NCBI RefSeq assembly: GCF_000027125.1 | Contig: NC_017626.1 | Strand: one strand, 5' to 3' | Source: Escherichia coli 042 | GTDB lineage: Bacteria > Pseudomonadota > Gammaproteobacteria > Enterobacterales > Enterobacteriaceae | DNA: 64,000 nucleotides | In this document: positions 8,384-20,452 of the stretch, piece after piece | How the letters are laid out: every line of letters starts with the position of its first letter | Numbering within the stretch: the first letter of the stretch is position 1 | Position numbers and translations under genes: made by a program | The notes under the pieces: model-generated | Database searches by the model: none | What the model saw: the letters and a program-made list of their open reading frames with translations, nothing else | What the model was told of the DNA's origin: nothing

Positions 8384-8530
8384 ATGGCAAAGCCGATCAT
8401 CACGCTCAATGGCCTAAAAATCGTCATTATGTTGGGAATGCTGGTCATTATTCTCTGCGGTATCCGTTTTGCCGCCGAGATCATCGTGCCGTTTATTCTC
8501 GCATTATTTATTGCTGTTATATATAACTAA
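8384..8530 (+). pseudogene. tqsA: tqsA 5' fragment (codons 1–45) ending at the island junction
   Basis: Encodes [45 protein letters not shown] then IYN-stop from island DNA; remainder of tqsA resumes at 19546. Confidence 0.8.
8512..8520. repeat. attL core (TGCTGTTAT)
   Basis: Identical 9-mer at 19546..19554; lies at tqsA codons 44–46. Confidence 0.7.
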
Positions 8531-8591
8531 TTTCACTTAACGCATTGATTTAATTAAATGATTTGCACTACAAAAAGTGCCATAAATCGCA

Positions 8592-8650
8592 AAATGACTA
8601 CACCAGTGACTACACCGTTCGGTGCACTGTATGAAACAACGTGGAACAAA
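8592..8650. promoter_or_regulatory. arm-type repeat block (GACTACACC x2), homologous to block near attR
   Basis: atGACTACACCagtGACTACACCg plus shared flanking motifs, matching 19391..19460. Confidence 0.5.
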
Positions 8651-8929
8651 TAGACACAAGAAATATACAGGCGGGTCATCTTTCCAGGGGGAAGCGCGCT
8701 AATTCATGAGGGGCGTTAATGTTGATATGGGGATCCCCATAACGGGGCTACCGGATTTTTTTTCCGGTTAACTGTTAATCAGGCTGGTGGGCTTTACCTG
8801 TTTTGTAGGAGTGGTCATTATGACCATTCAGACAATGACCTTAATCAGAACTTTTCGCTAAAAAATGACGTTGGTCACGTCGTCCGGAAAGCACAAAATC
8901 CCGTCAATTTTTAATTAACGGTTAAACCG

Positions 8930-8990
8930 TCTTTTGTCACGGCGTGTCACTGGTTGTCACTCTCCGTCACGGTATGTCGCTACTCGTTAA
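8930..8990. repeat. helically phased TGTCAC/GTCAC array (about 5 copies)
   Basis: tgtcacggcgtgtcactggttgtcactctccgtcacggtatgtcgc, ~10–11 bp spacing; at 3' end of the leftmost island gene. Confidence 0.45.
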
Positions 8991-9268
8991 CGCCGTAACC
9001 GCTCCGGCTTCTTCCAGTGGTACGTAATTTTCTCCGTTTCCCGATACAGTGCCACGCGGCGATTGTAGGCCAGCATTTCAAGAACGCGGATCCGTATGTT
9101 GCGCATATCCACATCATTAAGCTGGATACCATCACGGCGCATCACCTCAGCAACCACACGCGCGTAATTTTCGGCGGTCACGCTGTCCGGCTGCGTGGCC
9201 TGTTCGTCATGCTGCTGGCTGATTCCGGTAACGCGGCGGATTAATCCCAGTAGTTCGGCTTCTGTCAT
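8987..9268 (-). CDS. hypothetical protein (93 aa)
   Basis: ORF 8987..9466 trimmed to Met MTEAELLG; upstream part of the track ORF is read-through of the cos repeat. Confidence 0.45.
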   Translation of the reverse strand: MTEAELLGLIRRVTGISQQHDEQATQPDSVTAENYARVVAEVMRRDGIQLNDVDMRNIRIRVLEMLAYNRRVALYRETEKITYHWKKPERLRR

Positions 9269-9301
9269 TGTGCCCCCATCGCTCTGATAGTCTGGTGTCG
9301 T

Positions 9302-9365
9302 CGGGTCCTTCCTGGAATTATGGCCCGTTACGGGGCGGCGACCTCGCGCGTTTTCACTATTTATG
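9302..9365 (+). other. lambda-type cos site, copy A (cosN GGGCGGCGACCT at 9333..9344)
   Basis: cgggtccttcc...gttacg|GGGCGGCGACCT|cgcgcgttttcactatttatgaaaattttt matches remembered lambda cosQ–cosN–left-end sequence. Confidence 0.75.
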
Positions 9366-9547
9366 AAAATTTTTCGGGATCCATGTCCGGTTTCTCTGCA
9401 AGTTAACCATATGAAAAATATAAAAACATGCTTTCCATGAACCGGACATGCGCAAAAAACAGACACTAAAACCGGACATCGAACCAGTTAACCGAAAGTG
9501 TGCACAAATCACATGCATTGCTGCGAGTGATTAACAAGTTATCGGCT

Positions 9548-9982
9548 TTACTGTTCTGTATCGGCTGATTGCTCCATGCTGGCACGGCGAACGCTTATGG
9601 CATGACGCCACCCAGCCAGAAAGCCAGCCATTTTATTTCGTGCCTTGCTCACATCTTCCGGTGAATAGCCGTAAATCTGCAAACCTTCATCAAATCGATG
9701 TTCTGTTTCTTCACTGGAGTACTCGTCACGCTCAGATGAAAGCAGCCTGGCAAACATAATTTTTTCCAGCGCACTGGTTTCTACGTGATATCTGATGGTC
9801 TCAAGACGGCTTTTACCTGAAGACCAAAGCAATGTATGCCCGATGTGATAACCGCCAGACTTTCCGCGATCCGCATTAAGATACGGCATCCCCTGTTTGG
9901 TCCATGCGCGAATAGTGGTTCTGTTAACCTTGAAATGTTCAGCTATTTCCTGCTGACTTACAAAACAAGCTTTATCAATCAT
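9548..9982 (-). CDS. Nu1-like small terminase homolog (N-terminal HTH); possible packaging-redirecting protein
   Basis: 144 aa; VSQQEIAEHFKVNRTTIRAWTKQGMP resembles lambda Nu1 VNKKQLADIFGASIRTIQNWQEQGMP; flanked by cos copies. Confidence 0.7.
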   Translation of the reverse strand: MIDKACFVSQQEIAEHFKVNRTTIRAWTKQGMPYLNADRGKSGGYHIGHTLLWSSGKSRLETIRYHVETSALEKIMFARLLSSERDEYSSEETEHRFDEGLQIYGYSPEDVSKARNKMAGFLAGWRHAISVRRASMEQSADTEQ

Positions 9983-10050
9983 AATGTTACCTTAACTGCA
10001 TGGTTAAATATTAATCAAGTGGTGGTGGTGTCACCTTCACGGAAAAACGT

Positions 10051-10114
10051 CATAAATAGCGAAAACCCGCGAGGTCGCCGCCCCGTAACGGGCCATAATT
10101 CCAGGAAGGACCCG
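10051..10114 (-). other. lambda-type cos site, copy B (cosN at 10072..10083), inverted relative to copy A
   Basis: Reverse complement is cgggtccttcctggaattatggcccgttacgGGGCGGCGACCTcgcgggttttcgctatttatg; ~90 bp upstream of the Nu1-like start. Confidence 0.75.
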
Positions 10115-10117
10115 TAA

Positions 10118-10138
10118 AAAAGCCGGATTTCTCCGGCC
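10118..10138 (-). terminator. rho-independent terminator after the 137-aa gene
   Basis: Minus strand gccggagaaatccggc followed by T-run; same hairpin recurs near 12390 and 12759. Confidence 0.6.
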
Positions 10139-10143
10139 TTGTC

Positions 10144-10557
10144 TCAGATGTTTTTCAGTATGCGATCGATGTCGCCGTCATCGCCCTGGTTTCTGCCATC
10201 GTATGCCATGCCAGCTGATACGGCTTGCGGGCTGTGCATGTCCATAAAGTTTTCAAAGGCTGCGGTAAGTTCCGGCGCAACCTTCGGACGTTCCTGCTCT
10301 ATGGTCATGCTAAGGATGCTTTTAGCCGTACCAACATCGATACAAGGCACGTTTGCCATTGCACGCAACAGCGGCTGATAGTCTTTATGCTCATGAAGCG
10401 CCATAATCGCATCAGCGCGCGGCTTGTCCTGCTCTTCCAGTTTGTTTAGTTGATGTACGGCCTCATAGGTTGATAAACCTCTGTCAGCCATTGCCCGCGC
10501 TTCGACTTTAAATTTACTCGCCAGCGGTAGCGTCATGATGCTTTCATTCGTTGCCAT
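10144..10557 (-). CDS. hypothetical protein (137 aa), last gene of capsid operon
   Basis: ORF; tightly packed after the gpD-like gene. Confidence 0.5.
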   Translation of the reverse strand: MATNESIMTLPLASKFKVEARAMADRGLSTYEAVHQLNKLEEQDKPRADAIMALHEHKDYQPLLRAMANVPCIDVGTAKSILSMTIEQERPKVAPELTAAFENFMDMHSPQAVSAGMAYDGRNQGDDGDIDRILKNI

Positions 10558-10569
10558 CGTTCCCCCTGC

Positions 10570-10905
10570 TTATCGGGCCAGCGGCTGAACGGATACGCCG
10601 GAACCCGCAAAGGCGGCGCATTTTTTCGCATCGGTGTCGACGCTCTCAGGCCAGTTAACGGCGGCAATATTGAATATCCCCGTCTTGTAACACTGTGCTG
10701 ATTTCTGCTTTGACGTGTCCACAGGGTACGAGGTCAGATAAACAGCCTTGCCAGATTCCTGACCATCCCACGGCTTAAACTCGCCATTGTCTGCCAGCAT
10801 CAGCGGGGTAAATTCCTGAATAACGCCAGCATCAGCGGCAAAATGTACCAACGTCGTGGATACCTGCTGACTGCCTGCAAATAACTCAATGTATGGAGTG
10901 TCCAT
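10570..10905 (-). CDS. head decoration protein, lambda gpD-like
   Basis: 111 aa; TPLMLADNGEFKPWDG...KTGIFNIAAVNWPESVDTDAKKCAAFAGSGVSVQ parallels lambda gpD (110 aa). Confidence 0.72.
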   Translation of the reverse strand: MDTPYIELFAGSQQVSTTLVHFAADAGVIQEFTPLMLADNGEFKPWDGQESGKAVYLTSYPVDTSKQKSAQCYKTGIFNIAAVNWPESVDTDAKKCAAFAGSGVSVQPLAR

Positions 10906-10917
10906 AGAATCCCCCCG

Positions 10918-11973
10918 TTAACCAATTTTGACGGTAACAAATTTGCGAATATCTGCCGGTACCGGCTGCGGTGCACTGTGTGTCTGCACGTACTCAATCG
11001 CCGGATCGCCGTCCTCAATCCAGTTTTTCGGGTAAAACATGTTTTGTGTTGCGCCCGTTCTTACCGCTTCCTGATCCATTATCGCACCATAGGCCACCAG
11101 CCCTTTATTGTTGGTGTTACCCAGGACCAGCAAATCAGGCTCAAGGAAATATTTTTCGGTACCATCGCTGTCAGTGTATTTGCCGGAATAGACGATAAGG
11201 GCCAGATCACCAAGATAGCCTTTAAAGCTCACCACTTCGCCCAGGTTTTTACAGGCCAGTTCGGCGGCGGATTCTGAACCACGGGAAAGATCGTACAGCT
11301 CACGGAATTTTTTAAAGCTGCGTAATGTGCGCCATACCTCAGCGCCCATAATCATGACGTTTGCGGGGCAACCAGCCTGATCAGCATAAAGCTCGATGTC
11401 ATAGATTGGGTCGTGCATGTCTTTATCCTGCTCGGACCATTTTTTACCCTTGGCCTGCTCTATGATGCAGTTTTCCGGTATTTTCCAGTCGATTTCATAG
11501 CGTTCTATGCCTTCGCCCTCAATGATGTTTTTTCCGGTCGTTACCGCATTCACCGCCAGCCATTCCACGCGTGCCTTAATGGCGTTTATCTGGCGGCGCA
11601 TGTTGCCAGTAATCAGGCGCATACGGCGATAGGTAGGGTCGTTAAGCTGTGCCGGATCTTCTCCAGCCATGCGCATGATGGTTTTCGTTGGATCGATTTC
11701 GTGCTTTGGCTTCATGTAGCCAGGTTTGATTGTGCTGGTTTCGTACCCTTTATCGCGCTGAACCTGGCTACCCACCATAGGCGAACAAAACGCCGACATG
11801 GTGACTTCTTCAATGTCCAGGGTATCCAGCATGATGTTTTGCGTGCTGAATGTCGCCACGTTCGGGAAAAACAGCGTGGTAAACAGAGGGCTGAATTTAA
11901 AATCCGCAATATCCCCGCGATTCAGGTACATGAAAAGCTGGTTAGTGTTAAGTGCCGTTGCTTTGCCTGCCAT
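10918..11973 (-). CDS. major capsid protein, lambda gpE family
   Basis: 351 aa (lambda gpE is 341 aa); adjacent to gpD-like gene. Confidence 0.75.
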   Translation of the reverse strand: MAGKATALNTNQLFMYLNRGDIADFKFSPLFTTLFFPNVATFSTQNIMLDTLDIEEVTMSAFCSPMVGSQVQRDKGYETSTIKPGYMKPKHEIDPTKTIMRMAGEDPAQLNDPTYRRMRLITGNMRRQINAIKARVEWLAVNAVTTGKNIIEGEGIERYEIDWKIPENCIIEQAKGKKWSEQDKDMHDPIYDIELYADQAGCPANVMIMGAEVWRTLRSFKKFRELYDLSRGSESAAELACKNLGEVVSFKGYLGDLALIVYSGKYTDSDGTEKYFLEPDLLVLGNTNNKGLVAYGAIMDQEAVRTGATQNMFYPKNWIEDGDPAIEYVQTHSAPQPVPADIRKFVTVKIG

Positions 11974-12212
11974 TATTCACCCCCATAATTTTTATGCATC
12001 CCAAGCGCCGCAAGTAAATAAGAGCGTACAAGTGAACCTATCGACGGCTCCGGCGTCATCAGCGGATCCAGTCCAGCCGCAACGCCAGCTTCATAGTTTT
12101 TTTTGTGGCGCTGCTTGAGCACCTCCACGATTTCGGGGCTTATGTACACCGAAACACCGCCTTTTTTCTCTTCAGCCATAGTAAGAAATTCCTCTTCGAC
12201 TAAAAAAATCAT
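11973..12212 (-). CDS. hypothetical protein (79 aa, or 68 aa from internal Met), first gene of capsid operon
   Basis: ORF; stop overlaps capsid start (ATGA). Confidence 0.45.
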   Translation of the reverse strand: MIFLVEEEFLTMAEEKKGGVSVYISPEIVEVLKQRHKKNYEAGVAAGLDPLMTPEPSIGSLVRSYLLAALGMHKNYGGE

Positions 12213-12235
12213 AACTGGATGTTTATCCAGTTATG
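12208..12235. promoter_or_regulatory. 12-bp inverted repeat (tcataactggat-gttt-atccagttatga) overlapping capsid-operon start codon
   Basis: Perfect 12-bp arms with 4-bp spacer; AT-rich region with further palindrome ttgcattttatgcaa just upstream. Confidence 0.5.
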
Positions 12236-12344
12236 ATTATAATCAGAATTGCATTTTATGCAATGATATTGAGTTATGTTGCAAATTATGAAATGATTAT
12301 CCCGATCACGAACGCCAGTGCATCCAAAAACCTCATATGCAAAA

Positions 12345-12410
12345 GCCCGATAAGAACCCTCTGACCTTATCGGGCTTTTTTTGGGCGCAAAAAAGCCGGA
12401 TTGCTCCGGC
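12345..12410. terminator. tandem hairpins (bidirectional terminator region, approximate)
   Basis: gcccgataag...cttatcgggc + T7, then aaaaaagccggattgctccggc. Confidence 0.55.
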
Positions 12411-12430
12411 TATGTGTGCTGTGTGCTGGC

Positions 12431-12655
12431 TCAGTCTCTGATCTCTTTCAGAAATTCTATCAATGCATCTATCTGTTCAGGATTTACCGCCAGCATTTCA
12501 CCGGATAGAGCACATCTCACAAAACCATGCTGATCCTTTTCAATCAGTGCGCCCGTCTCCAGGAATGCGCGGTAATCATTGATGCTCATCGTCTCCATGT
12601 TGTCAGCATGGTATTTATCACGCTGTTTTAATATCTCATCAAATTTCATCGGCAT
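12431..12655 (-). CDS. hypothetical protein (74 aa)
   Basis: ORF followed by terminator hairpin. Confidence 0.45.
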   Translation of the reverse strand: MPMKFDEILKQRDKYHADNMETMSINDYRAFLETGALIEKDQHGFVRCALSGEMLAVNPEQIDALIEFLKEIRD

Positions 12656-12758
12656 TGTTTTTTTCCTCTGTTGTGTCTGTTTGTTTCAGATAGTAACTAT
12701 GCCTGACCGTGACGAAAACCCGGTAATGCGCCATACCGTTTCAACTGGTGCAAAAAAA

Positions 12759-12774
12759 GCCGGATTTCTCCGGC
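12759..12774 (-). terminator. rho-independent terminator after PerC-like gene
   Basis: aaaaaaagccggatttctccggc. Confidence 0.6.
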
Positions 12775-12781
12775 TGTTTGA

Positions 12782-13054
12782 TTAGCTGTCCTGGTAATTG
12801 CGCCATATTTCATCACCAGCACCATCTATACCCATTTCGGCATAAGTGCGATCGACTGCCTTTTTCAGGTCTCCGAAATTATCCGGCGGCTCCGGTGCCC
12901 TCTGTGCCTTCCTTGAACATTCCAGCCGTCGCATCGTGATGTGATGCCGTTCCTTGTCTGTCTCCACCAGCTGCATGACTTCACCCCATCGCGCCGCCGC
13001 CCTCCGGTAAAAGCCTTTCGCCTCCAGTTCCTCCGCTATGCGGTCATGTACCAT
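12782..13054 (-). CDS. PerC-family transcriptional regulator-like protein
   Basis: ORF 12782..13174 trimmed to Met MVHDRIAEELEAKGFYRRAAARWGEVM, which resembles the PerC/Pch motif LExxGxWRRAAxRW. Confidence 0.55.
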   Translation of the reverse strand: MVHDRIAEELEAKGFYRRAAARWGEVMQLVETDKERHHITMRRLECSRKAQRAPEPPDNFGDLKKAVDRTYAEMGIDGAGDEIWRNYQDS

Positions 13055-13064
13055 CGTCACCCCC

Positions 13065-13475
13065 TCAGAACGAAATATCATCACCGTAAGGGTCATCGCC
13101 TCCCGCTGGTGGCTGATTACCCTGTGTGCCTGTGGTTTTGCGTCTGTTCCCGCCTGGACGTGCCGCGCGGGCACTGATTACGCTGTCTGCGATAACCTGC
13201 CAGCCCTGCCGCGTTTCTCCGTTCTGTCCGGTCCACTGGCTTACCTGCATCGTGCCGGATACGCTGGCAACATCGCCTTTTTGATGTTTAGCCAGGAAGT
13301 CGGCCTGTTTGCCAAATGCGATGACCGATAACCATAACGTCGCCTGTCCGTCCTGTGCCTGGCTGCATGGCAAAGATACCGCCATACGCGCCAGCGTCAT
13401 CGGTGTGCCCTTGCTGGTCTGTTTTACCTGCGGGTCGTCCACCAGCCGCCCGTAAGCGGCTATCTGTGCCGTCAT
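13065..13475 (-). CDS. ssb: single-stranded DNA-binding protein
   Basis: 136 aa; OB-fold segments parallel E. coli SSB; Gly/Pro-rich tail ending DDPYGDDISF (compare DFDDDIPF). Confidence 0.8.
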   Translation of the reverse strand: MTAQIAAYGRLVDDPQVKQTSKGTPMTLARMAVSLPCSQAQDGQATLWLSVIAFGKQADFLAKHQKGDVASVSGTMQVSQWTGQNGETRQGWQVIADSVISARAARPGGNRRKTTGTQGNQPPAGGDDPYGDDISF

Positions 13476-13753
13476 AATTCCACCTCTCCGGTTTTAACGT
13501 TGATGGTTGTTACCTGTTCCGCTTCGGCAATCTCCCGTTCTGTCAGCGTGGCAAAGTTTGCCGCCGCCGTGGTCATGAATGCGCTTATCAGGTCGGGATG
13601 TTCCTTCGCGTATCCTTCCCGCGTGTGGCGGTCTATCGTTCTGATTGCCACCTTTAAGGTGTGCTCAGTCATGTCTAACGCTTTATATTTTGGCTCTGTT
13701 CTGTCTCTGCGTTTTTGGGTCATTTCTCGCAACCTCTCACTTTTTCGCCTCAC
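13472..13753 (-). CDS. hypothetical protein (93 aa)
   Basis: ORF overlapping ssb start by 4 nt; 5' end overlaps iteron region. Confidence 0.4.
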   Translation of the reverse strand: MRRKSERLREMTQKRRDRTEPKYKALDMTEHTLKVAIRTIDRHTREGYAKEHPDLISAFMTTAAANFATLTEREIAEAEQVTTINVKTGEVEL

Positions 13754-13925
13754 TTTTTCAAGCGTCTCACTTCGTCGCAGTTGGGATTTTCGGTTTTTCT
13801 ATGTGTGTGTTTCATAAGTATTTTTTTACCCCTCACTTTTGAGGATGTATACAGGTCGAAAAGTGAGGGAGAGCGGGCTAATTTTGGCCCTCTTTCTATC
13901 CCCCTCGCTTTTGCTCCTCACTTTT
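13733..13925. repeat. candidate replication origin: CCTCACTTTT iterons (about 6 direct, 1 inverted) with AT-rich spacer
   Basis: Iterons at about 13733, 13748, 13764, 13829, 13859 (inverted), 13901, 13916; directly 3' of the replication ATPase gene. Confidence 0.6.
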
Positions 13926-15324
13926 ATAGCGGCGCTACATCATCCCCATCGATACGAATAACCCCATCTTTTTCCAGCTTGTACAGCCAGCGCCGGAAGT
14001 TTTTCATTTCATACCCCAGCTTTTTCATGTCATCACGTAACAGCGGGATCGTGCACTTGTCGCCGTTCTGTGTGCGTGAACGGATGCACCCCCATAGCGC
14101 GGTATGGTTTTCCGTCTTGTTCCCTGCCTCCTCGATGCGCTCCAGTTCAACAGGAGGGCGCGGATCATCCACCACCACCAGCGACGTGATTAATTCACCG
14201 TCAGCGTCGGTAAAAAGCTCCACCACGCGTAAGTCATATGCGGCTTCTTTGAGTTCCTCCGCGTCCTTCATTTTGGTGCATGAGATAACCAGCGCTTCGC
14301 TTCCTGCGTCCTCCCTGCGTATCCGGTATTCAGCATCCAGCGAAGCACGAAATGCACTGGAACCGCGCGCGCCTTTCGTCTCATCCTTGCCGGAATGGTG
14401 AACCACCAGCACCGTGGCCCCTGTGCGTCGTTTCAGTTCGTCACAACCACGGATAAACGCCCCCATATCACGGGAATCATTTTCATCATTCCCACCAAAG
14501 CAACGCGCCAGCGTATCCAGAATAATCATGCGTACAGGTTTACCCGTTTCCCGCTCCACCTGACGGGCAGCGATAACCATTTCATCAACATCAAGCGGGG
14601 CAGCCGGAAAGATGGGGCGGTTTACCAGATACAGATTTTTCACCTGCTCATCGTGCACAACCTCCCAGGCTTTTACACGACGCGGAACACCTATACCGCC
14701 TTCACCAACCACATAGAGAACCGCACCATGTGCAACCCTGCGGCCTCCCCACTGGCGACCAGTGGCAACATGGCACGCCCACGATCCAGCAAGGAATGAT
14801 TTATAGGACCCGCTAGCCCCGTATATGCTGCATAGCGATACCGCCGGAATAATCCCCTTAACCACGTAATCCAGTTGCGTGTCGTATCCGGTAGATCCAA
14901 CGCTCATCGGTAGCGTGGTTTTTCGCTGGTGTTTTTTTTCTTCCGCCGGCTCTTTCCCGCGCACCCGTTCCAGGTATTCGCGCCAGTTCTCCCGCATATG
15001 GCTGTGCATCCCTTCGGGGTAATAATTCGCATCAGTTACACCCGCCGCCGCCAGCTTGTGCGCAATGGCATTAATATTTGATGGCCTGATGTGGCCTGCC
15101 TTGTACAGCCGGACACAATAGCGCCCCTCGTCGATGATTCTCAGGTCTGCCAGTTCATCCAGTTGATCATCAGCCAGCACAACGGGAGGCACATTATCGC
15201 CAGCCAGTCGCCCGTCCTGTTCCTGCCACTGTTTCGCATGTGCCCAGGCATCACTACCCGCAAAAATAATGACTTCGGTCATCTTGTCGTAAGGCTGTTT
15301 TTTTAAGTTCGGTGCGCTTTTCAT
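13924..15324 (-). CDS. replication protein, RecA-fold ATPase / helicase-like (primase-replicase candidate)
   Basis: 466 aa; Walker A GASGSYKS, Walker B MIILDTLARCFGG, VLVVHHSGK motif typical of phage/plasmid RepA or DnaB-like ATPases. Confidence 0.75.
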   Translation of the reverse strand: MKSAPNLKKQPYDKMTEVIIFAGSDAWAHAKQWQEQDGRLAGDNVPPVVLADDQLDELADLRIIDEGRYCVRLYKAGHIRPSNINAIAHKLAAAGVTDANYYPEGMHSHMRENWREYLERVRGKEPAEEKKHQRKTTLPMSVGSTGYDTQLDYVVKGIIPAVSLCSIYGASGSYKSFLAGSWACHVATGRQWGGRRVAHGAVLYVVGEGGIGVPRRVKAWEVVHDEQVKNLYLVNRPIFPAAPLDVDEMVIAARQVERETGKPVRMIILDTLARCFGGNDENDSRDMGAFIRGCDELKRRTGATVLVVHHSGKDETKGARGSSAFRASLDAEYRIRREDAGSEALVISCTKMKDAEELKEAAYDLRVVELFTDADGELITSLVVVDDPRPPVELERIEEAGNKTENHTALWGCIRSRTQNGDKCTIPLLRDDMKKLGYEMKNFRRWLYKLEKDGVIRIDGDDVAPL

Positions 15325-15620
15325 TTCTTGCCCCTGAATCCGTTAACCATGGTTTTCAGCTTCTGGATGTTTGCCCGTGCCCTGGCGTTGCTGGTGGGCA
15401 CGTTATGCGGCGCGGTCTGTACCAGAGAAAAATCACGCCGGAACTGATAAACAGGCATCACGCAATCATATTCGTAACCTTCACGGCGGTAGGTTACGCG
15501 CCGTTCTTCCACGTCCTTAATCATTACCGTGCCGCCGTACTGGTCGCGGTAAATATCACCGCGCGTAAATTTAGGGTGAGTGTTGCCACTGGCAGTTAAG
15601 CCAGAATATTTAAGTTTCAT
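15321..15620 (-). CDS. hypothetical protein (99 aa)
   Basis: ORF overlapping rep start by 4 nt. Confidence 0.45.
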   Translation of the reverse strand: MKLKYSGLTASGNTHPKFTRGDIYRDQYGGTVMIKDVEERRVTYRREGYEYDCVMPVYQFRRDFSLVQTAPHNVPTSNARARANIQKLKTMVNGFRGKK

Positions 15621-15625
15621 TATTT

Positions 15626-15859
15626 TTATTCTCCGGTGTGCTGTTCTTTATATCTGTCGTGCAATAGATCTATTTCTTGCAGTTCCATTATTACAGGCTC
15701 AAGAAGCGTTATTAATGCTGTGGCAATTCTTGATTTTTGTTTGTCGCGTTCATTGTCGCCAAGTGTTTCAAGCCATATGCGCAATATTTCCATCATGTTT
15801 TCACTGTGAGAAAGTGCAAGAAATGCGCGGTCTATTGTTTGGTGGTAAATATCACGCAT
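15626..15859 (-). CDS. hypothetical protein (77 aa)
   Basis: ORF in operon context. Confidence 0.4.
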   Translation of the reverse strand: MRDIYHQTIDRAFLALSHSENMMEILRIWLETLGDNERDKQKSRIATALITLLEPVIMELQEIDLLHDRYKEQHTGE

Positions 15860-16319
15860 GGCTTACATCCTCAGGAAATTTTCTTCTATAACGCGCCTCT
15901 GCCACATATTCCGCATAATCGGCGGCGATATTCAGTACATCAAGCCCCGTTGATTTATATTCTCTCGTGGAAAGTAAGAAAAAAGCCGCTCTAATAAGTT
16001 CTGGCATTGACGAAAGCGCATCAGCCGCATCATCAGGAACGCCGGAAAATTCCTGTTTCAGGGAATTAAAACGATCATCACGCATAACCCCCCCCCCATT
16101 TTCACAATCAGCAATCAGGATAGCTTTGGCCTCATTCAGCGCCGTATCAGCACTAAATTGCATGACAGCCAGTGAGTGAGGAACGAAAGCACCGGCATAT
16201 TCTGTTTCGCTGGTGGCGTGCTTATGTGCCCTGTCCGCGATAACAGAAATATCAATCAGCGCGTGCATCAGCGTTTTGATGGCTTCGGCGGCTGCGTCCG
16301 GTGTGGTTTTATTGTGCAT
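15852..16319 (-). CDS. hypothetical protein (155 aa) containing a G10 homopolymer
   Basis: ORF; codons GGG-GGG-GGG at 16088..16097. Confidence 0.45.
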   Translation of the reverse strand: MHNKTTPDAAAEAIKTLMHALIDISVIADRAHKHATSETEYAGAFVPHSLAVMQFSADTALNEAKAILIADCENGGGVMRDDRFNSLKQEFSGVPDDAADALSSMPELIRAAFFLLSTREYKSTGLDVLNIAADYAEYVAEARYRRKFPEDVSHA

Positions 16320-16521
16320 AAAGCATCCCCTGAATATTCGTGTTAATCATTCCGGCACGTTTTGTGATTTCCTGTAATGATTCCCTTGTGGCGACAATTG
16401 CTTCATCTGGTAAGTGGTAATTACACACCACGCGACCTTTATCCACATTGACCAGTAGCTGCCCTGTGAATTTCTCACGAAACTGAATGCGGTTAAGGTC
16501 AGTAAGTGACAGATTAATCAT
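16309..16521 (-). CDS. hypothetical protein (about 70 aa from internal Met MINLSL)
   Basis: ORF 16309..16563 starts at GTG; ATG at 16521 is the likelier start. Confidence 0.4.
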   Translation of the reverse strand: MINLSLTDLNRIQFREKFTGQLLVNVDKGRVVCNYHLPDEAIVATRESLQEITKRAGMINTNIQGMLYAQ

Positions 16522-16711
16522 GGCGCACCTCCTGACGAATACGGGCGGCAAATACAGCAACACAACCGGACGGGCAACGGTTACGCGCTTCGCGTTCCGT
16601 CCAGGCGGTTACGTGGATGATTTGAGATTCTCCGGCACTCAGTGCCAGAAAACGCCACACAAAGGCCGTTTGTGTGTGTACAAGGTGTGGTATATGATTT
16701 ACAGCAACCAT
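16514..16711 (-). CDS. hypothetical small protein (about 65 aa), first gene leftward of regulatory region
   Basis: ORF 16514..16786 trimmed to Met MVAVNH. Confidence 0.3.
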   Translation of the reverse strand: MVAVNHIPHLVHTQTAFVWRFLALSAGESQIIHVTAWTEREARNRCPSGCVAVFAARIRQEVRHD

Positions 16712-16803
16712 AACGGCTCCTAGTTTACGTTGTTGGTTAGAAGCCCTGCGAGTGGTAACGACACTTGCGGGGCTTTGTCTTTTCATCGATTACCTTGATA
16801 AAG

Positions 16804-16884
16804 GTGTCAGCCACTATATTAGTAACGGGTGTCAGCCACGTCAATAGTGTTTTTCCGTTTTCTTGTGTGTATACTGTCAGCCAC
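16804..16884. promoter_or_regulatory. divergent regulatory region with three direct repeats GTCAGCCAC
   Basis: Repeats at 16806..16814, 16831..16839, 16876..16884; tatact box and aggaaa RBS precede the plus-strand small gene. Confidence 0.6.
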
Positions 16885-16905
16885 CTAATAACGAGGAAAT
16901 CAGAT

Positions 16906-17085
16906 ATGGCAACAAAAGCAGTTAATGCAAAATCCAAAAAGCTTGAGGCTCGAGTACCACACGCAATAGCTGATGCTGTAGAAAATTTAAAGGAAGATGG
17001 CGAAAGTACAGGGCAATTTATCGTTTCGGCACTTGAAGGCGAGATCAAACGCCGCCAGCGCCGCAAGGCCAAAGAATCAGAATAA
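16906..17085 (+). CDS. small ribbon-helix-helix-like DNA-binding protein (59 aa), candidate island regulator
   Basis: KKLEARVPHAIADAVENLKEDGESTGQFIVSALEGEI resembles Arc/CopG RHH; transcribed divergently from the leftward gene block. Confidence 0.5.
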   Translation: MATKAVNAKSKKLEARVPHAIADAVENLKEDGESTGQFIVSALEGEIKRRQRRKAKESE

Positions 17086-17127
17086 TCACTATCAGCGCCG
17101 TGGTGTGAGGTATTACGGCGCATTGCT

Positions 17128-17316
17128 ATGCAGGACAACACAATGACCGATAAAGAATTGACCAAAACATTATCACCGGCACGGAAAAGACGGCGCAGAA
17201 AGATAGAGCATGAATCAGAAAGATTCGCACCATGTGCTTTTGCCCTTGAGCAATTCCTTAAAGAGTACAGGGAAAAGCGCTCATTGCAGGTATGGCAACG
17301 AACTGAACCAGACTGA
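17128..17316 (+). CDS. hypothetical basic small protein (62 aa)
   Basis: ORF downstream of RHH gene; Arg/Lys-rich. Confidence 0.35.
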   Translation: MQDNTMTDKELTKTLSPARKRRRRKIEHESERFAPCAFALEQFLKEYREKRSLQVWQRTEPD

Positions 17317-17394
17317 TTGCATTGCCCACCAGCCTGATAGCGGCTATCATCCCCGTGCTTATGTTTGGGATCACACACACAAACGGCGCAGCGG

Positions 17395-17430
17395 GTTATC
17401 TGTTCAGAAAGGCGGCTCCATTTCGGGGCC
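17395..17430 (+). terminator. candidate terminator of the plus-strand pair (approximate)
   Basis: ggcggctccatttcggggccgc followed by tttttta. Confidence 0.45.
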
Positions 17431-17585
17431 GCTTTTTTTATACCTGAAAAACCCCAATTTTGTTGTTTTTCAGTTTCACCAGGGCGAACGAATCCCCGCC
17501 CACGTTCTGGCGTATATTCAATCTTCATGGTTATAGCTCTGTGTTCAGATGATTGATGTGTGGCGGCTGCGTGCCGCCAGCGTGA

Positions 17586-17774
17586 TTAATGAACTGCCTT
17601 GCAGCTATCCTTCCAGGCCAGAACCTCGGATAAAGACCAGCCAACGGAACGACCGCCAAGTTTACGACGTGATGGGAATTGTCCGGCCTTTTCCAGGCGG
17701 TAGCGACACGTACGGCTAAGGCCGGTTAGTTTTTCGCATTCTTTTTCACGTATAAACCGATCAGTGCTTAACAC
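17586..17774 (-). CDS. alpA: AlpA-family phage transcriptional regulator / excisionase-like
   Basis: 62 aa; LTGLSRTCRYRLEKAGQFPSRRKLGGRSVGWSLSEVLAW matches AlpA HTH pattern. Confidence 0.8.
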   Translation of the reverse strand: MLSTDRFIREKECEKLTGLSRTCRYRLEKAGQFPSRRKLGGRSVGWSLSEVLAWKDSCKAVH

Positions 17775-18140
17775 TATTGCCCCCCCTTTCGTTTCTTAAA
17801 GAGTCATCAGGTGTCTTATTGTGTCGTATTGTTCCCGCTAGAGTGATGAATGGCAAATATTGAGGATGTATGATTTACAGAAAATGAAACAGTAAGAATA
17901 AAATCTTTTAAATTCATGTTAATACAAAGGCATAAAATATTGTTTCATGCCTTTTTTCTCGCTCTTTAAAGAGTGATTCGCTAGTGTATAAAAAACCAGT
18001 GACACATTAAAAATCAGCCACTTATAAATCTGTATGCTTTTTCGCCTCTTGTTCGTGGTTGTTCCACATTGTTGCTCATTGTTGCACGTTGTATCTGTTC
18101 GCATATACAGTATGCGCATACTGAAAAAACACGAAAAAAA

Positions 18141-19370
18141 TTATTTTCTTCTGGCTACTGGTAGCGTGGTTACGTTTTCATGTGTTCCCGCCAGTATCCC
18201 TAACCGCTCCGTCCACATATCCAGCGCATTGCGTTTAGCATCCAGATAACGGGAATGATTATAAACTCGCTGCATTCCTGGCATCTGGTGGCCTGTAAGC
18301 TGCTCCACGACATGCGGATCAACGCCTAAATCGTTCAGCATGGTTGTAAAGGTGCGCCGGATGTCATGCAGTGACCAGTGAGGATGATTAAGCCTCCTGT
18401 GCGCTAATCTTCCATACTGCGATACGCTGGCCTCCTGTTTCACTTCCCCCAGCAATAAGCCCGTGTGCCTGTTCTGCTCCACCAGCTGCGTGACGAACGG
18501 CAGGATCGCTTCCGGTATGGGCCGGAATATTGCGACCTTCGTTTTGCTGTGCTCCTTCGGAACGGTCCATAGCATTTCCGTAAAATCCCACTCCCCGATC
18601 TCCGATAACCTCAGTTCTACCGTTCTGGCTCCGAAGACAATCAGGAGGCGGATTAACGCGACGTAGTAAGGGGAGAATATTTTTTTGTCCAGTGCCTGCA
18701 ATAATTCGCCAAGTTCTTTGTTACTTAAGACACGTTCGCTTATATCCGGTTTTTTCCCAACGTCCGCCACGTTCAGATCGTCCAGAACGTTGCTGATTGC
18801 ATAGCGCCGCCTACGGCAGAACTTAAGCGCCTGTTTGCACGCCTGTAGCACGAATCCGGCAGTAACAGGCGTTCGCTTTGCCACCTGGTCAAAACAGGCC
18901 AGCCAGTGCCGTAGCTCGCATTTATCCAGCGGCATAGCACCAATCTGCTGTATTACGTGATTATTAAGTCGCCTTTTCAGGGCGATATAATCCACGCGGT
19001 TTTCCTTTACGTAATACTCAAGCCAGTAGGTGAGCGCATCGCCAACCGTTACCGGCTTTAACGCTTCCTGTACGGTGTAATTAAGCTCATGACGTGGATT
19101 TTTCCCCTCTGCCAGCCATGCGCGACACTGGGCGGCTTTTTCCCTGGCTGATTTCAGGCTCAGATCAGGATAACTTCCCAGCTTAATGCGTTCGGGTCGT
19201 GTCTCCCTTCCCGTTCCGGCCCTGTATGTGAAATACCAGGTCAATTTCCCTGATGTTAAATATTTCACGCTCAGGTTTCCGCCATCACTATAAAACGTGT
19301 TTTTCTCCGCTGGCTTACCATGAAGTTTCCTTAGCAAGGTATCGCTCAGTTTGTTCATTGCTCTGCTCAC
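18141..19370 (-). CDS. int: tyrosine site-specific integrase (P4-like, N-terminal arm-binding domain)
   Basis: 409 aa; C-terminal HDIRRT...GHQ...VYNHSRY catalytic motifs; adjacent to attR. Confidence 0.9.
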   Translation of the reverse strand: MSRAMNKLSDTLLRKLHGKPAEKNTFYSDGGNLSVKYLTSGKLTWYFTYRAGTGRETRPERIKLGSYPDLSLKSAREKAAQCRAWLAEGKNPRHELNYTVQEALKPVTVGDALTYWLEYYVKENRVDYIALKRRLNNHVIQQIGAMPLDKCELRHWLACFDQVAKRTPVTAGFVLQACKQALKFCRRRRYAISNVLDDLNVADVGKKPDISERVLSNKELGELLQALDKKIFSPYYVALIRLLIVFGARTVELRLSEIGEWDFTEMLWTVPKEHSKTKVAIFRPIPEAILPFVTQLVEQNRHTGLLLGEVKQEASVSQYGRLAHRRLNHPHWSLHDIRRTFTTMLNDLGVDPHVVEQLTGHQMPGMQRVYNHSRYLDAKRNALDMWTERLGILAGTHENVTTLPVARRK

Positions 19371-19390
19371 GTTTTACCCCCTCTTTACGA

Positions 19391-19460
19391 AAAAGTGACT
19401 ACACCAGTGACTACACCGATCGTTGCACAAAGGGCTACAACGTGAAACAAGCTGGAACAA
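19391..19460. promoter_or_regulatory. arm-type repeat block (GACTACACC x2) between int start and attR
   Basis: gtGACTACACCagtGACTACACCg at 19397..19417, homologous to 8592..8650. Confidence 0.5.
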
Positions 19461-19545
19461 GGAAAATCACAAATCTGTTGATAATCAAAAACATAATGCA
19501 CAGCCTGAAACATTATGAAACAGCAAAAAACACCAAATGATAAAA

Positions 19546-19554
19546 TGCTGTTAT
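19546..19554. repeat. attR core (TGCTGTTAT)
   Basis: Identical to 8512..8520; in-frame stops TGA TAA immediately upstream. Confidence 0.7.
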
Positions 19555-20452
19555 TCTTAACCCGCTGGTGCAACACATGGTCCGCTGGCGAGTGCCGCGT
19601 GTACTGGCGGTGTCGATTTTGATGACCATCATCGTGATGGCGATGGTGTTGCTGTTAGCTTATCTGGGTTCCGCGCTCAACGAGTTGACGCGGACGTTAC
19701 CGCAATATCGCAACTCTATTATGACGCCGCTGCAAGCGATTGAACCGTTGTTGCAACGCGTAGGGATTGATGTCTCAGTTGACCAACTGGCGCATTACAT
19801 TGATCCGAACGCGGCGATGACGTTGCTCACCAACTTATTGACGCAGTTATCTAATGCCATGTCATCAATATTTTTATTGCTGCTGACGGTGCTGTTTATG
19901 CTGCTCGAAGTGCCACAATTGCCCGGAAAATTTCAGCAAATGATGGCGCGTCCGGTTGAAGGGATGGCGGCGATTCAGCGTGCGATTGACAGTGTTTCTC
20001 ATTATCTGGTGCTGAAAACAGCCATCAGCATCATCACCGGCCTGGTCGCCTGGGCGATGCTCGCCGCACTCGATGTTCGCTTCGCTTTTGTCTGGGGATT
20101 GCTGGCCTTTGCGCTTAATTACATCCCTAATATTGGTTCAGTTCTCGCAGCAATTCCCCCTATCGCTCAGGTACTGGTGTTTAATGGCTTCTACGAAGCG
20201 TTGTTGGTGCTGGCGGGATATCTGCTGATTAATCTGGTCTTCGGCAATATTCTGGAGCCGCGCATCATGGGACGTGGGCTGGGGCTTTCGACATTGGTGG
20301 TATTTTTGTCGTTGATTTTTTGGGGATGGTTGTTAGGACCGGTGGGTATGCTGCTTTCCGTGCCGTTGACAATTATTGTCAAAATTGCGCTTGAACAAAC
20401 AGCGGGAGGTCAAAGCATCGCCGTTCTGTTAAGCGATCTCAATAAAGAGTGA
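19546..20452 (+). pseudogene. tqsA: tqsA 3' portion (codons 44–344), separated from its start and promoter by the island
   Basis: In-frame continuation [14 protein letters not shown]...; track ORF 19568..20452 begins at an internal GTG. Confidence 0.8.

Follow-up and report, generated by a model that had tools for sequence, protein, structure and literature searches.

The segment from position 10,144 to 12,212 of the window, a 64,000-nucleotide stretch of DNA from Escherichia coli 042 (contig NC_017626.1), is almost certainly the conserved c1498-c1501-type capsid cassette, a four-gene operon, of a classical Gram-negative phage-inducible chromosomal island (PICI) of the EcCICFT073 type. Alongside a small open reading frame (ORF), the cassette gives the island a coat protein, a head decoration protein and a scaffold-like protein that lacks a protease domain. 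The gpE- and gpD-like genes of E. coli PICIs have been in print since 2018 and are now used as a detection marker. Because those genes were already published and the structure of the coat protein had been deposited, finding them here adds nothing new in itself. What is added is modest, namely the assignment of the c1501 product as a scaffold homologue, the unusual variability of its gene, and figures on selection and co-occurrence for the cassette as a whole.

The features of a classical Gram-negative PICI are found throughout the element. An integrase gene lies at one end with attachment (att) repeats, an AlpA regulator and the island's own replication gene are present, the size is within the range of ~10-20 kb, and helper-type cos sites accompany an Rpp gene in the absence of tail, lysis, portal and large terminase (TerL) genes. 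PHROG scans of the 20 principal island ORFs, taken together with ORF lengths, revealed no portal, prohead protease or large terminase, and the scans likewise found no tail or lysis genes; the longest ORFs encode a RepA-type helicase (466 amino acids, aa), the integrase (409 aa) and the coat protein (351 aa). The lack of portal, protease and large terminase had been reported in a preliminary description made from the sequence alone, which was also right in regarding the element as a phage satellite obliged to borrow helper parts. Capsid-forming PICIs (cf-PICIs) are recognized by a large terminase, portal, prohead protease and head-tail connectors of their own, and this set is missing here. The suggestion that the island stands between classical PICIs and cf-PICIs, or follows a distinct strategy, does not hold, because its cassette is 95.6-98.2 % identical to that of EcCICFT073, the prototype of the classical Gram-negative PICIs, and because a capsid gene is standard in that group.

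Products of the cassette genes

The 351-aa protein had been described as a lambda gpE-like major capsid protein, and the profile check bears this out, with Pfam PF03864 (Phage_cap_E) matching residues 28-349 at an E value of 6.8e-50 and PHROG 29 ('major head protein') matching at 1.5e-107. Aligned with lambda gpE over 327 residues, the protein shows 43 % identity (E 5e-92), and it matches both the lambda gpE structures (7VI9 and relatives, E 1.6e-80) and PDB entry 3BQW (E 9e-232), a crystal structure labelled 'putative capsid protein of prophage' that is identical in sequence to CFT073 c1499. Sequence comparison also indicates that the satellite coat represents an old, separate lineage rather than a recent capture, because no deposited phage coat is more than 47 % identical to it (the limit found in the phage-record collection), as against 62 % between the coats of lambda and of the CFT073 helper (phage 4), a pair outside which the island coat falls. 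For the 111-aa protein, the reading as a gpD-like decoration protein is equally borne out; PF02924 (HDPD) gives a whole-domain match to residues 8-103 (E 6e-18), identity to gpD is 36 % (E 3e-13), and the nearest solved structure is SHP of phage 21 (1TD0, E 1.7e-13), followed by a match to the gpD structure at E 4e-9.

The main correction to the preliminary description concerns the fourth gene. Its 137-aa product had been listed as being of unknown function and the island as having no scaffold, which is wrong because this product is a Nu3-like scaffold homologue. The lambda scaffold consists of the Nu3 domain, which the gpC protease carries as its C-terminal part as well. Sequence and profile comparisons show homology between the 137-aa protein and this scaffolding domain of lambdoid gpC/Nu3, and by that relationship the protein would act as a scaffold. 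Family-against-family alignment with hhalign joins the two over 117 columns, with a probability of 96.4 % and an E value of 1.4e-9. The protein also matches the extreme C terminus of PHROG 53 ('head maturation protease', E 5.8e-9), and a tblastn search of 50,697 phage records matched it only to the last ~85 codons of lambdoid gpC/Nu3 genes, the phages concerned being those with the closest coat proteins. BLASTP showed 37 % identity to residues 416-493 of the 501 residues of gpC from the CFT073 icd prophage (helper 'phage 4'; E 5e-11), with a second and weaker match on the preceding gpC repeat. The island protein comprises two copies of the Nu3 repeat, as against three in the helper, plus the motif FENFMDMHSPQAV, whose helper counterpart is FEHFMANHSPAAV.

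When the 137-aa protein was compared directly with lambda Nu3 and FI by BLASTP, no match appeared. The link to lambda Nu3 emerges only through gpC of the phage-4/PhiR12 type and through profile methods, with a further bridge in P0041, a 195-aa stand-alone Nu3-type protein that is 52 % identical to the C-terminal region of the CFT073 prophage gpC. Searches of Pfam, NCBIfam and PDB sequences returned nothing significant for the protein. The family is narrow, since an exhaustive HMMER search of 1.8 billion representatives recovered only 8 clusters and a word-indexed search only close E. coli relatives. Some of its members bear the NCBI name 'phage head-tail connector protein', and a search of the available literature found no paper linking Nu3 with PICIs.

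The small ORF that opens the operon had been placed correctly on the minus strand, but it probably starts at 12179 (68 aa) rather than at 12212 (79 aa), because the RefSeq orthologues are 68 aa long and the 79-aa version begins inside a hairpin. It is present in all 80 IMG/VR relatives and is 68 % identical to its c1498 orthologue in EcCICFT073. An AlphaFold2 (AF2) model of the 68-aa protein consists of two helices, with a mean confidence score (pLDDT) of 74. With that model as the query, Foldseek found no PDB match better than E 1.7, and nothing significant appeared in Pfam, NCBIfam or PDB sequence searches. A ribbon-helix-helix regulator was considered and is not claimed, the only pointers to it being a sequence pattern and a weak BrnA match (E 0.05).

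Operon structure, conservation and the surrounding island

The four minus-strand ORFs lie, as originally described, at 11973-12212, 10918-11973, 10570-10905 and 10144-10557. The start of the coat gene overlaps the stop of the small ORF, the two intergenic gaps that follow are 12 nt each, and a G-rich ribosome-binding site precedes every cassette gene. This tight spacing, the ribosome-binding sites and a closing hairpin with T-run uphold the idea of an operon with its own terminator, whereas the accompanying promoter is a prediction, the best nearby match in a generic sigma-70 scan (9/12) not being above chance. The argument for a promoter instead rests on the conservation of the upstream block and on published co-regulation. 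A block of ~90 bp is almost invariant in 7 elements, including L006, a diverged PICI embedded in its helper, for which the dS of the coding region is ~0.8-1.0, and the CFT073 orthologues c1498-c1501 are reported to rise together at 37 °C (PMC12890032). The promoter region includes a perfect -10 element, TATAAT (12241-12236), with a poor -35, and the palindromes ATTGCA-N5-TGCAAT and TGATTATAATCA. An inverted repeat located between the -10 and the small ORF, and kept in close relatives though not in L006, could be a leader hairpin or an operator; overall, the sequence from 12207 to 12292 looks like that of an activator- or repressor-controlled promoter. The terminator hairpin occurs in three near-identical copies (10113-10142, 12386-12415 and 12750-12779; plus strand AAAAAAGCCGGATTTCTCCGGC), which end three transcription units that follow one another along the island.

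Of 5,426 complete E. coli genomes, 594 (~11 %) contain the full 2,069-bp block in collinear form, at ~92-100 % nucleotide identity. Gene order and spacing are constant in 80 IMG/VR loci, and among the 71 with enough flanking DNA the decoration gene is found in all and the Nu3-like gene in 69. The backbones that carry the cassette have unrelated integrases (21-25 % identity), a replication gene encoding either a RepA helicase or a P4-type primase, and either rppA or a 180-aa TerS-like (small terminase-like) gene. Every cassette ORF is intact in all 7 elements compared, and pairwise ratios of non-synonymous to synonymous substitution (dN/dS) among these elements mark the coat (0.06-0.16) and decoration (0.03-0.30) genes as the most strongly constrained of the cassette. 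When pairs with fewer than 5 synonymous differences are excluded, the ratio is 0.18-0.43 for the small ORF and 0.21-0.41 for the Nu3-like gene; the excluded pairs reach 0.76 (from two nearly identical pairs) and 0.72, respectively. On this comparative evidence, the cassette proteins are functional rather than decaying and are under purifying selection.

The Nu3-like gene varies more than its neighbours. Its products are 137, 134 and 115 aa long in the window (10144-10557), L089 (1873-2277) and L006 (8727-9074), respectively, and are 40-45 % identical to one another, with coat and decoration proteins at 85-98 %, a pattern that suggests swapping of alleles. Residues of the N-terminal repeat and a C-terminal IDRILKxI are invariant among the alleles. 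The motif FENFMDMHSP is confined to the allele shared by the window and CFT073, and it recurs in gpC/Nu3 of the CFT073-type helper. As for L006 itself (NZ_CM143727.1, 4640660-4660207), this diverged copy of a whole PICI lies inside a hybrid-looking prophage, with head-completion genes (FI, head-tail joining) on one side and P2-like contractile-tail genes on the other.

Directly after the cassette terminator come cos1, rppA and cos2. The two cos regions form, one per arm, a 78-nt inverted repeat that is 91 % complementary and brackets rppA, and with an exact lambda cosN in each arm the two sites are oriented oppositely. EcCICFT073 is reported to have two functional cos sites (PMC6092414), and RppA to redirect the helper terminase to the island cos site (PMC6739421). 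The N-terminal helix-turn-helix (HTH) of the rppA-type product resembles lambda Nu1 (E 2e-6) and the TerS family PHROG 57. Although c1503 is listed as 113 aa, that length would fit a start at Met32 of the 144-aa ORF.

Features of the capsid cassette and of the island that carries it (positions in the window)
Feature	Position	Strand	Basis or remark
Small ORF, 68 aa, orthologue of CFT073 c1498	11973..12179	-	PHROG 3255 (function unknown), E 1.6e-54
Major capsid protein, 351 aa, lambda gpE family (HK97 fold), orthologue of c1499	10918..11973	-	Profile and sequence matches
Head decoration protein, 111 aa, gpD/SHP family, orthologue of c1500	10570..10905	-	Profile and sequence matches
Free-standing Nu3-like scaffold homologue, 137 aa, orthologue of c1501	10144..10557	-	Profile and sequence matches
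Conserved promoter/operator region of the capsid operon (predicted promoter function)	12236..12292	-	Direct sequence reading and conservation
Inverted repeat with 14-bp stem and T-run, between -10 and small-ORF start	12207..12238	-	Sequence repeat analysis
Intrinsic-terminator hairpin GCCGGAGAAATCCGGC and T-run, closing the operon	10121..10138	-	Direct sequence reading
cos1 region, lambda-type cosN GGGCGGCGACCT at 10072-10083	10037..10114	-	Exact cosN match
rppA-type gene, 144 aa	9548..9982	-	98.6 % identical to CFT073 ORF at c1503 position
cos2 region, cosN at 9333-9344	9302..9379	+	Exact cosN match; inverted relative to cos1
Conserved 93-aa ORF at island end	8987..9268	-	PHROG 1561 (function unknown); 91 % identical to CFT073 orthologue
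Island replication protein, RepA-type helicase/primase-like, 466 aa	13924..15324	-	PHROG 2850 and 906
AlpA-like HTH regulator/excisionase	17586..17774	-	PHROG 2790, E 2.5e-17; PHROG 66
Tyrosine integrase, 409 aa	18141..19370	-	PHROG 1, E 1.4e-71; NCBIfam integrase domains
Whole island, EcCICFT073-type Gram-negative PICI inserted in tqsA	8521..19554	-	11,034 bp

The boundaries of the island are set by the att core TGCTGTTAT, a 9-bp direct repeat at both junctions (8512-8520 and 19546-19554), and joining the flanks restores the reading frame of tqsA (...LFIAVI|...). The gene is thus split, with mdtJ/ydgV on one side of the island and the remainder of tqsA on the other; the insertion point falls at about codon 46 of this autoinducer-2 exporter gene, the two parts occupying 8384-8520 and 19546-20452. 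It is probably inactivated or N-terminally truncated, because the insertion leaves no more than a 5' stub and the island supplies no in-frame start for the 3' part. The same tqsA site is occupied by a PICI in strain JNE120442, where the 5' tqsA fragment is annotated as incomplete. Just inside both island ends (8595-8617 and 19396-19418) is a 23-bp direct repeat, TGACTACACCAGTGACTACACCG, itself a tandem of TGACTACACC, and these end repeats may be arm-type sites for the integrase; a primer used for the deletion of int in CFT073 carries a similar tandem, GGTGTAGTTAAT.

All of the named island genes are co-oriented on the minus strand. The O55:H7 orthologue of the replication protein, 99.8 % identical, is annotated in RefSeq as 'helicase RepA family protein', and PHROG scans add SSB and a PerC-like protein to the island's repertoire. 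Four closely spaced GTGAC(A) repeats occur on the minus strand at 8945-9000, within ccgtgacggagagtgacaaccagtgacacgccgtgacaaaag, just 3' of the 93-aa ORF. A 263-aa minus-strand ORF at 16737-17528 has no PHROG match and overlaps a plus-strand 106-aa ORF (16765-17085) that matches PHROG 949. The longer ORF is probably spurious, because the annotation here in relatives is an Icd-like pseudogene together with an opposite-strand gene of the YlcI/YnfO family. A tRNA scan found none. Judged by the ORF list, the window between 20 and 64 kb contains no prophage-like long run of co-oriented ORFs, and no helper can be named from the window.

Possible roles of the cassette

The most plausible view is that the island supplies shell proteins to particles otherwise made of helper parts. 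In the specific form preferred here, which is put forward tentatively and with somewhat less than even confidence, coat, scaffold and decoration proteins are a kit for building full-size shells on helper portals, made redundant in the laboratory by the helper coat. Upon induction of the helper, the Nu3-like protein would aid polymerization of the island coat on a helper portal, and the helper gpC protease, having the same kind of C-terminal Nu3 domain, would be co-incorporated and remove the scaffold. RppA would retarget the helper terminase to the island cos site, and the terminase would then pack a concatemer of about four 11-kb genomes into a full-size, T=7-like head. Expansion of the head would expose three-fold sites for the island's own decoration trimer, and helper connectors and tails would complete the particle. 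In lambda, gpD attaches to the coat lattice only once this has expanded, at three-fold sites (structures 7VIK and relatives); taken with the strong constraint on the island's cognate decoration protein, this argues for the existence of mature shells made largely of island coat. Four genomes of 11 kb amount to ~44 kb, which fits a lambda head, and the phage size of the packaged DNA is in keeping with four copies of the genome in each full-size head. That the knock-outs show no phenotype would follow from the redundancy of the island coat with a helper coat doing the same job in standard transfer assays, any benefit being conditional, for example on particular helpers or on particle stability.

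Several observations weigh against such a kit. The knock-out experiment proposed in the preliminary description, with transfer and titre as readouts, had already been published for the coat and decoration orthologues and had no effect. Deletion of c1499 or c1500 left resident-helper transfer at 3.8e3 and 8.7e3, respectively, compared with 8e3 transductants per ml (PMC6092414 Table 1), and an island with cat in place of c1499 was still moved by lambda and phi80 (PMC6092414). Because transfer is unchanged by these losses, the cassette's contribution is dispensable in those assays. A literature search found no proteomic or electron microscopy (EM) evidence for the island coat protein in particles, nor any assembly data for proteins of the c1499 type, and the single-sequence AF2 model obtained for the 137-aa protein was all-helical but of low confidence (pLDDT 44) and not usable. 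In CFT073, expression of c1498-c1501 at 37 °C takes place even when no phage has been induced (PMC12890032), and this may point to a function beyond packaging. Between two elements, the coat, decoration and Rpp proteins are 96-98 % identical but the Nu3-like proteins (134 and 115 aa) only 45 %, and a pure role as scaffold for the island's own coat does not predict so fast-evolving a gene. Uninduced expression and the hypervariable Nu3-like gene are the observations that the preferred model fits least well.

These same two observations favour an unlikely alternative, in which the cassette proteins, made from their own promoter, co-assemble with or titrate the head proteins of particular lambdoid phages other than lambda and phi80, spoiling their heads by capsid poisoning or scaffold mimicry and thereby protecting both host and island. 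Transcription of c1498-c1501 in uninduced CFT073 (PMC12890032) would be in keeping with such exclusion, and genes engaged in arms races or partner switching are often as variable as the Nu3-like gene is relative to its neighbours (40-45 % versus 85-98 %). The sharing of FENFMDMHSP between the window/CFT073 allele and the helper-type gpC/Nu3 points the same way, and there is a precedent in SaPIbov5 Ccm, a satellite coat homologue that blocks phage (PMC6893505). Where lambda is concerned, however, poisoning of helper capsids, as raised in the preliminary description, is excluded. Neither the c1499 nor the c1500 deletion restored lambda plaques (PMC6092414); of the post-ori genes that were cloned, c1503 (rppA) alone inhibited lambda, and its deletion restored lambda titres almost fully (PMC6739421). 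Moreover, the coat and decoration genes are under strong purifying rather than diversifying selection, and a poison subunit has no obvious need of a cognate decoration protein. Rather less probable is that the Nu3-like protein is the active component, an adaptor bridging helper portal, protease or coat to the island's advantage, with coat and decoration proteins as secondary passengers. It does resemble exactly the C-terminal domain common to lambda-type proteases and their scaffold, its alleles are swapped between otherwise near-identical cassettes, and no c1501 knock-out was found in the published work searched, in which c1501 served only as an adjoining marker-insertion site. Yet passengers would hardly be the most constrained genes of the cassette, and lambda was unaffected when the post-ori genes apart from c1503 were expressed from pBAD (PMC6739421).

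The small capsids envisaged in the preliminary description would require another natural helper, with which the island coat and its short scaffold would form T=3 or T=4 capsids for a single 11-kb genome, a reading that is decidedly improbable. There are parallels for it in PmCI172, which has a coat homologue and yields small heads (PMC6092414), and in SaPIbov5, whose Ccm redirects capsid size (PMC6893505), and the island scaffold homologue has two Nu3 repeats compared with three in the helper. With lambda, however, all packaged DNA was phage-sized, and the native CFT073 background gave no PICI monomer band (PMC6092414). Island size also mattered for cos packaging and transfer, as expected for multimers in full-size heads (PMC6092414). 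The cassette was intact in these experiments, because the tetA marker lies after the c1501 stop; the possibility that c1501 was disrupted in the 'wild-type' EcCICFT073 c1501::tetA was ruled out, the recombineering primer ending with the last c1501 codons and the stop. Least likely by far is a functionless remnant, the decaying leftover of a head module from an ancestral phage or cf-PICI. The lack of a phenotype for c1499 or c1500 (PMC6092414) counts in favour of a remnant, but the selection and conservation data contradict it; the ORFs are intact in every element examined with dN/dS of ~0.1, the genes keep the same order and spacing across 80 IMG/VR loci, the block recurs in 594 complete genomes and on unrelated backbones, and the upstream regulatory block is conserved.

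A broader hypothesis, more doubtful than the full-size-shell kit on which it builds, is that c1498-c1501 are a complete kit with which classical E. coli PICIs in general build their own shells on stolen helper portals, the Nu3-like protein serving as a helper-matching adaptor. If so, these islands would have a 'half capsid-forming' lifestyle that single-gene knock-outs miss because the helper coat substitutes, and a helper lacking E, D or Nu3 would still mobilize the island. The underlying puzzle, already recognized in the field, is that ~11 % of complete E. coli genomes keep a strongly constrained cassette whose deletion has no laboratory phenotype. The presence of a Nu3-like c1501 in the cassette, and its swapping or much faster divergence relative to coat and decoration genes, sharpen the question of why the cassette is retained. 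The answer would show whether a continuum exists between satellites that steal whole capsids and satellites that build their own.

Comparison with known systems

Among phages, the closest counterpart is the lambda-type head module (lambda, the CFT073 icd prophage 'phage 4', PhiR12 and Gifsy-1), to which all three structural proteins of the island are homologous, with identities of 43-47 % for the coat, 36-44 % for the decoration protein and 37 % for the Nu3 domain. The gene order differs, being E-D-Nu3 in the island and C/Nu3-D-E in the phages; furthermore, the island scaffold is free-standing, with two repeats only and no S49 protease domain, and the portal, terminase, W, FI and FII are absent. 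The functions of P4 Sid and Psu offer an analogy only, in that a satellite encodes capsid-modifying and decoration proteins, and they are not homologous. Sid is an external scaffold that acts on the helper coat. P4 itself has no coat gene (PMC6092414).

Among satellites, cf-PICIs such as EcCIEDL933 share the integrase/alpA/replication backbone and a satellite-encoded coat; however, they carry a full set of protease, portal, head-tail connectors, HNH, TerS and TerL, which the island lacks. That gene list defines the group (bioRxiv 10.1101/2022.09.08.507074; PMC10085698), whose members build their own small capsids (bioRxiv 10.1101/2022.09.08.507074). SaPIbov5 resembles the island in having an HK97-fold coat homologue, Ccm, beside a helper with its own coat. 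Ccm, however, leads to small capsids, and phage titres are 1e6-1e7 higher with the ccm mutant than with wild-type SaPIbov5 (PMC6893505); with lambda, the EcCICFT073 orthologues show neither small capsids nor such a loss of phage titre (PMC6092414). Ccm is not known to be accompanied by a decoration or scaffold gene (PMC6893505). PmCI172, from Pasteurella, is another Gram-negative PICI with a coat gene, but its helper is Mu-like, and its heads are small (~38 nm by EM; PMC6092414), the part played in them by the coat gene being putative. PICIs embedded in their helpers (11capE type) have the same cassette, and in L006 this comprises the small ORF, a coat and a decoration protein that are each 86 % identical to those of the island, and a 115-aa Nu3-like variant; they differ in sitting inside a late gene of the helper and in belonging to another integrase clade (21 % identity).

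The nearest relative of all is EcCICFT073, for which induction, replication and high-frequency transfer by helpers have been shown experimentally (PMC6092414). In a comparison that took in the cassette and its downstream neighbours, gene order and spacing are the same, and protein identities are 96.6 % for the coat, 98.2 % for the decoration protein, 95.6 % for the 137-aa protein, 98.6 % for the ORF at the Rpp position and 91 % for the 93-aa ORF. Both islands are ~11 kb in size, with two inverted lambda-type cosN sites and an integrase, alpA and replication backbone, whereas they differ in location, EcCICFT073 being integrated next to phoQ and the present island inside tqsA. In the supplementary table of Fillol-Salom et al. 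2018, c1499 appears with 351 aa and the label 'capsid', c1500 with 111 aa and c1501 with 137 aa and no function, alongside an entry for c1503. Across the wider group, 21 of 29 reference Gram-negative PICIs carry a capsid gene (PMC10111431), and SatelliteFinder counts 'capsid morphogenesis' among the five core components of PICIs (PMC10085698).

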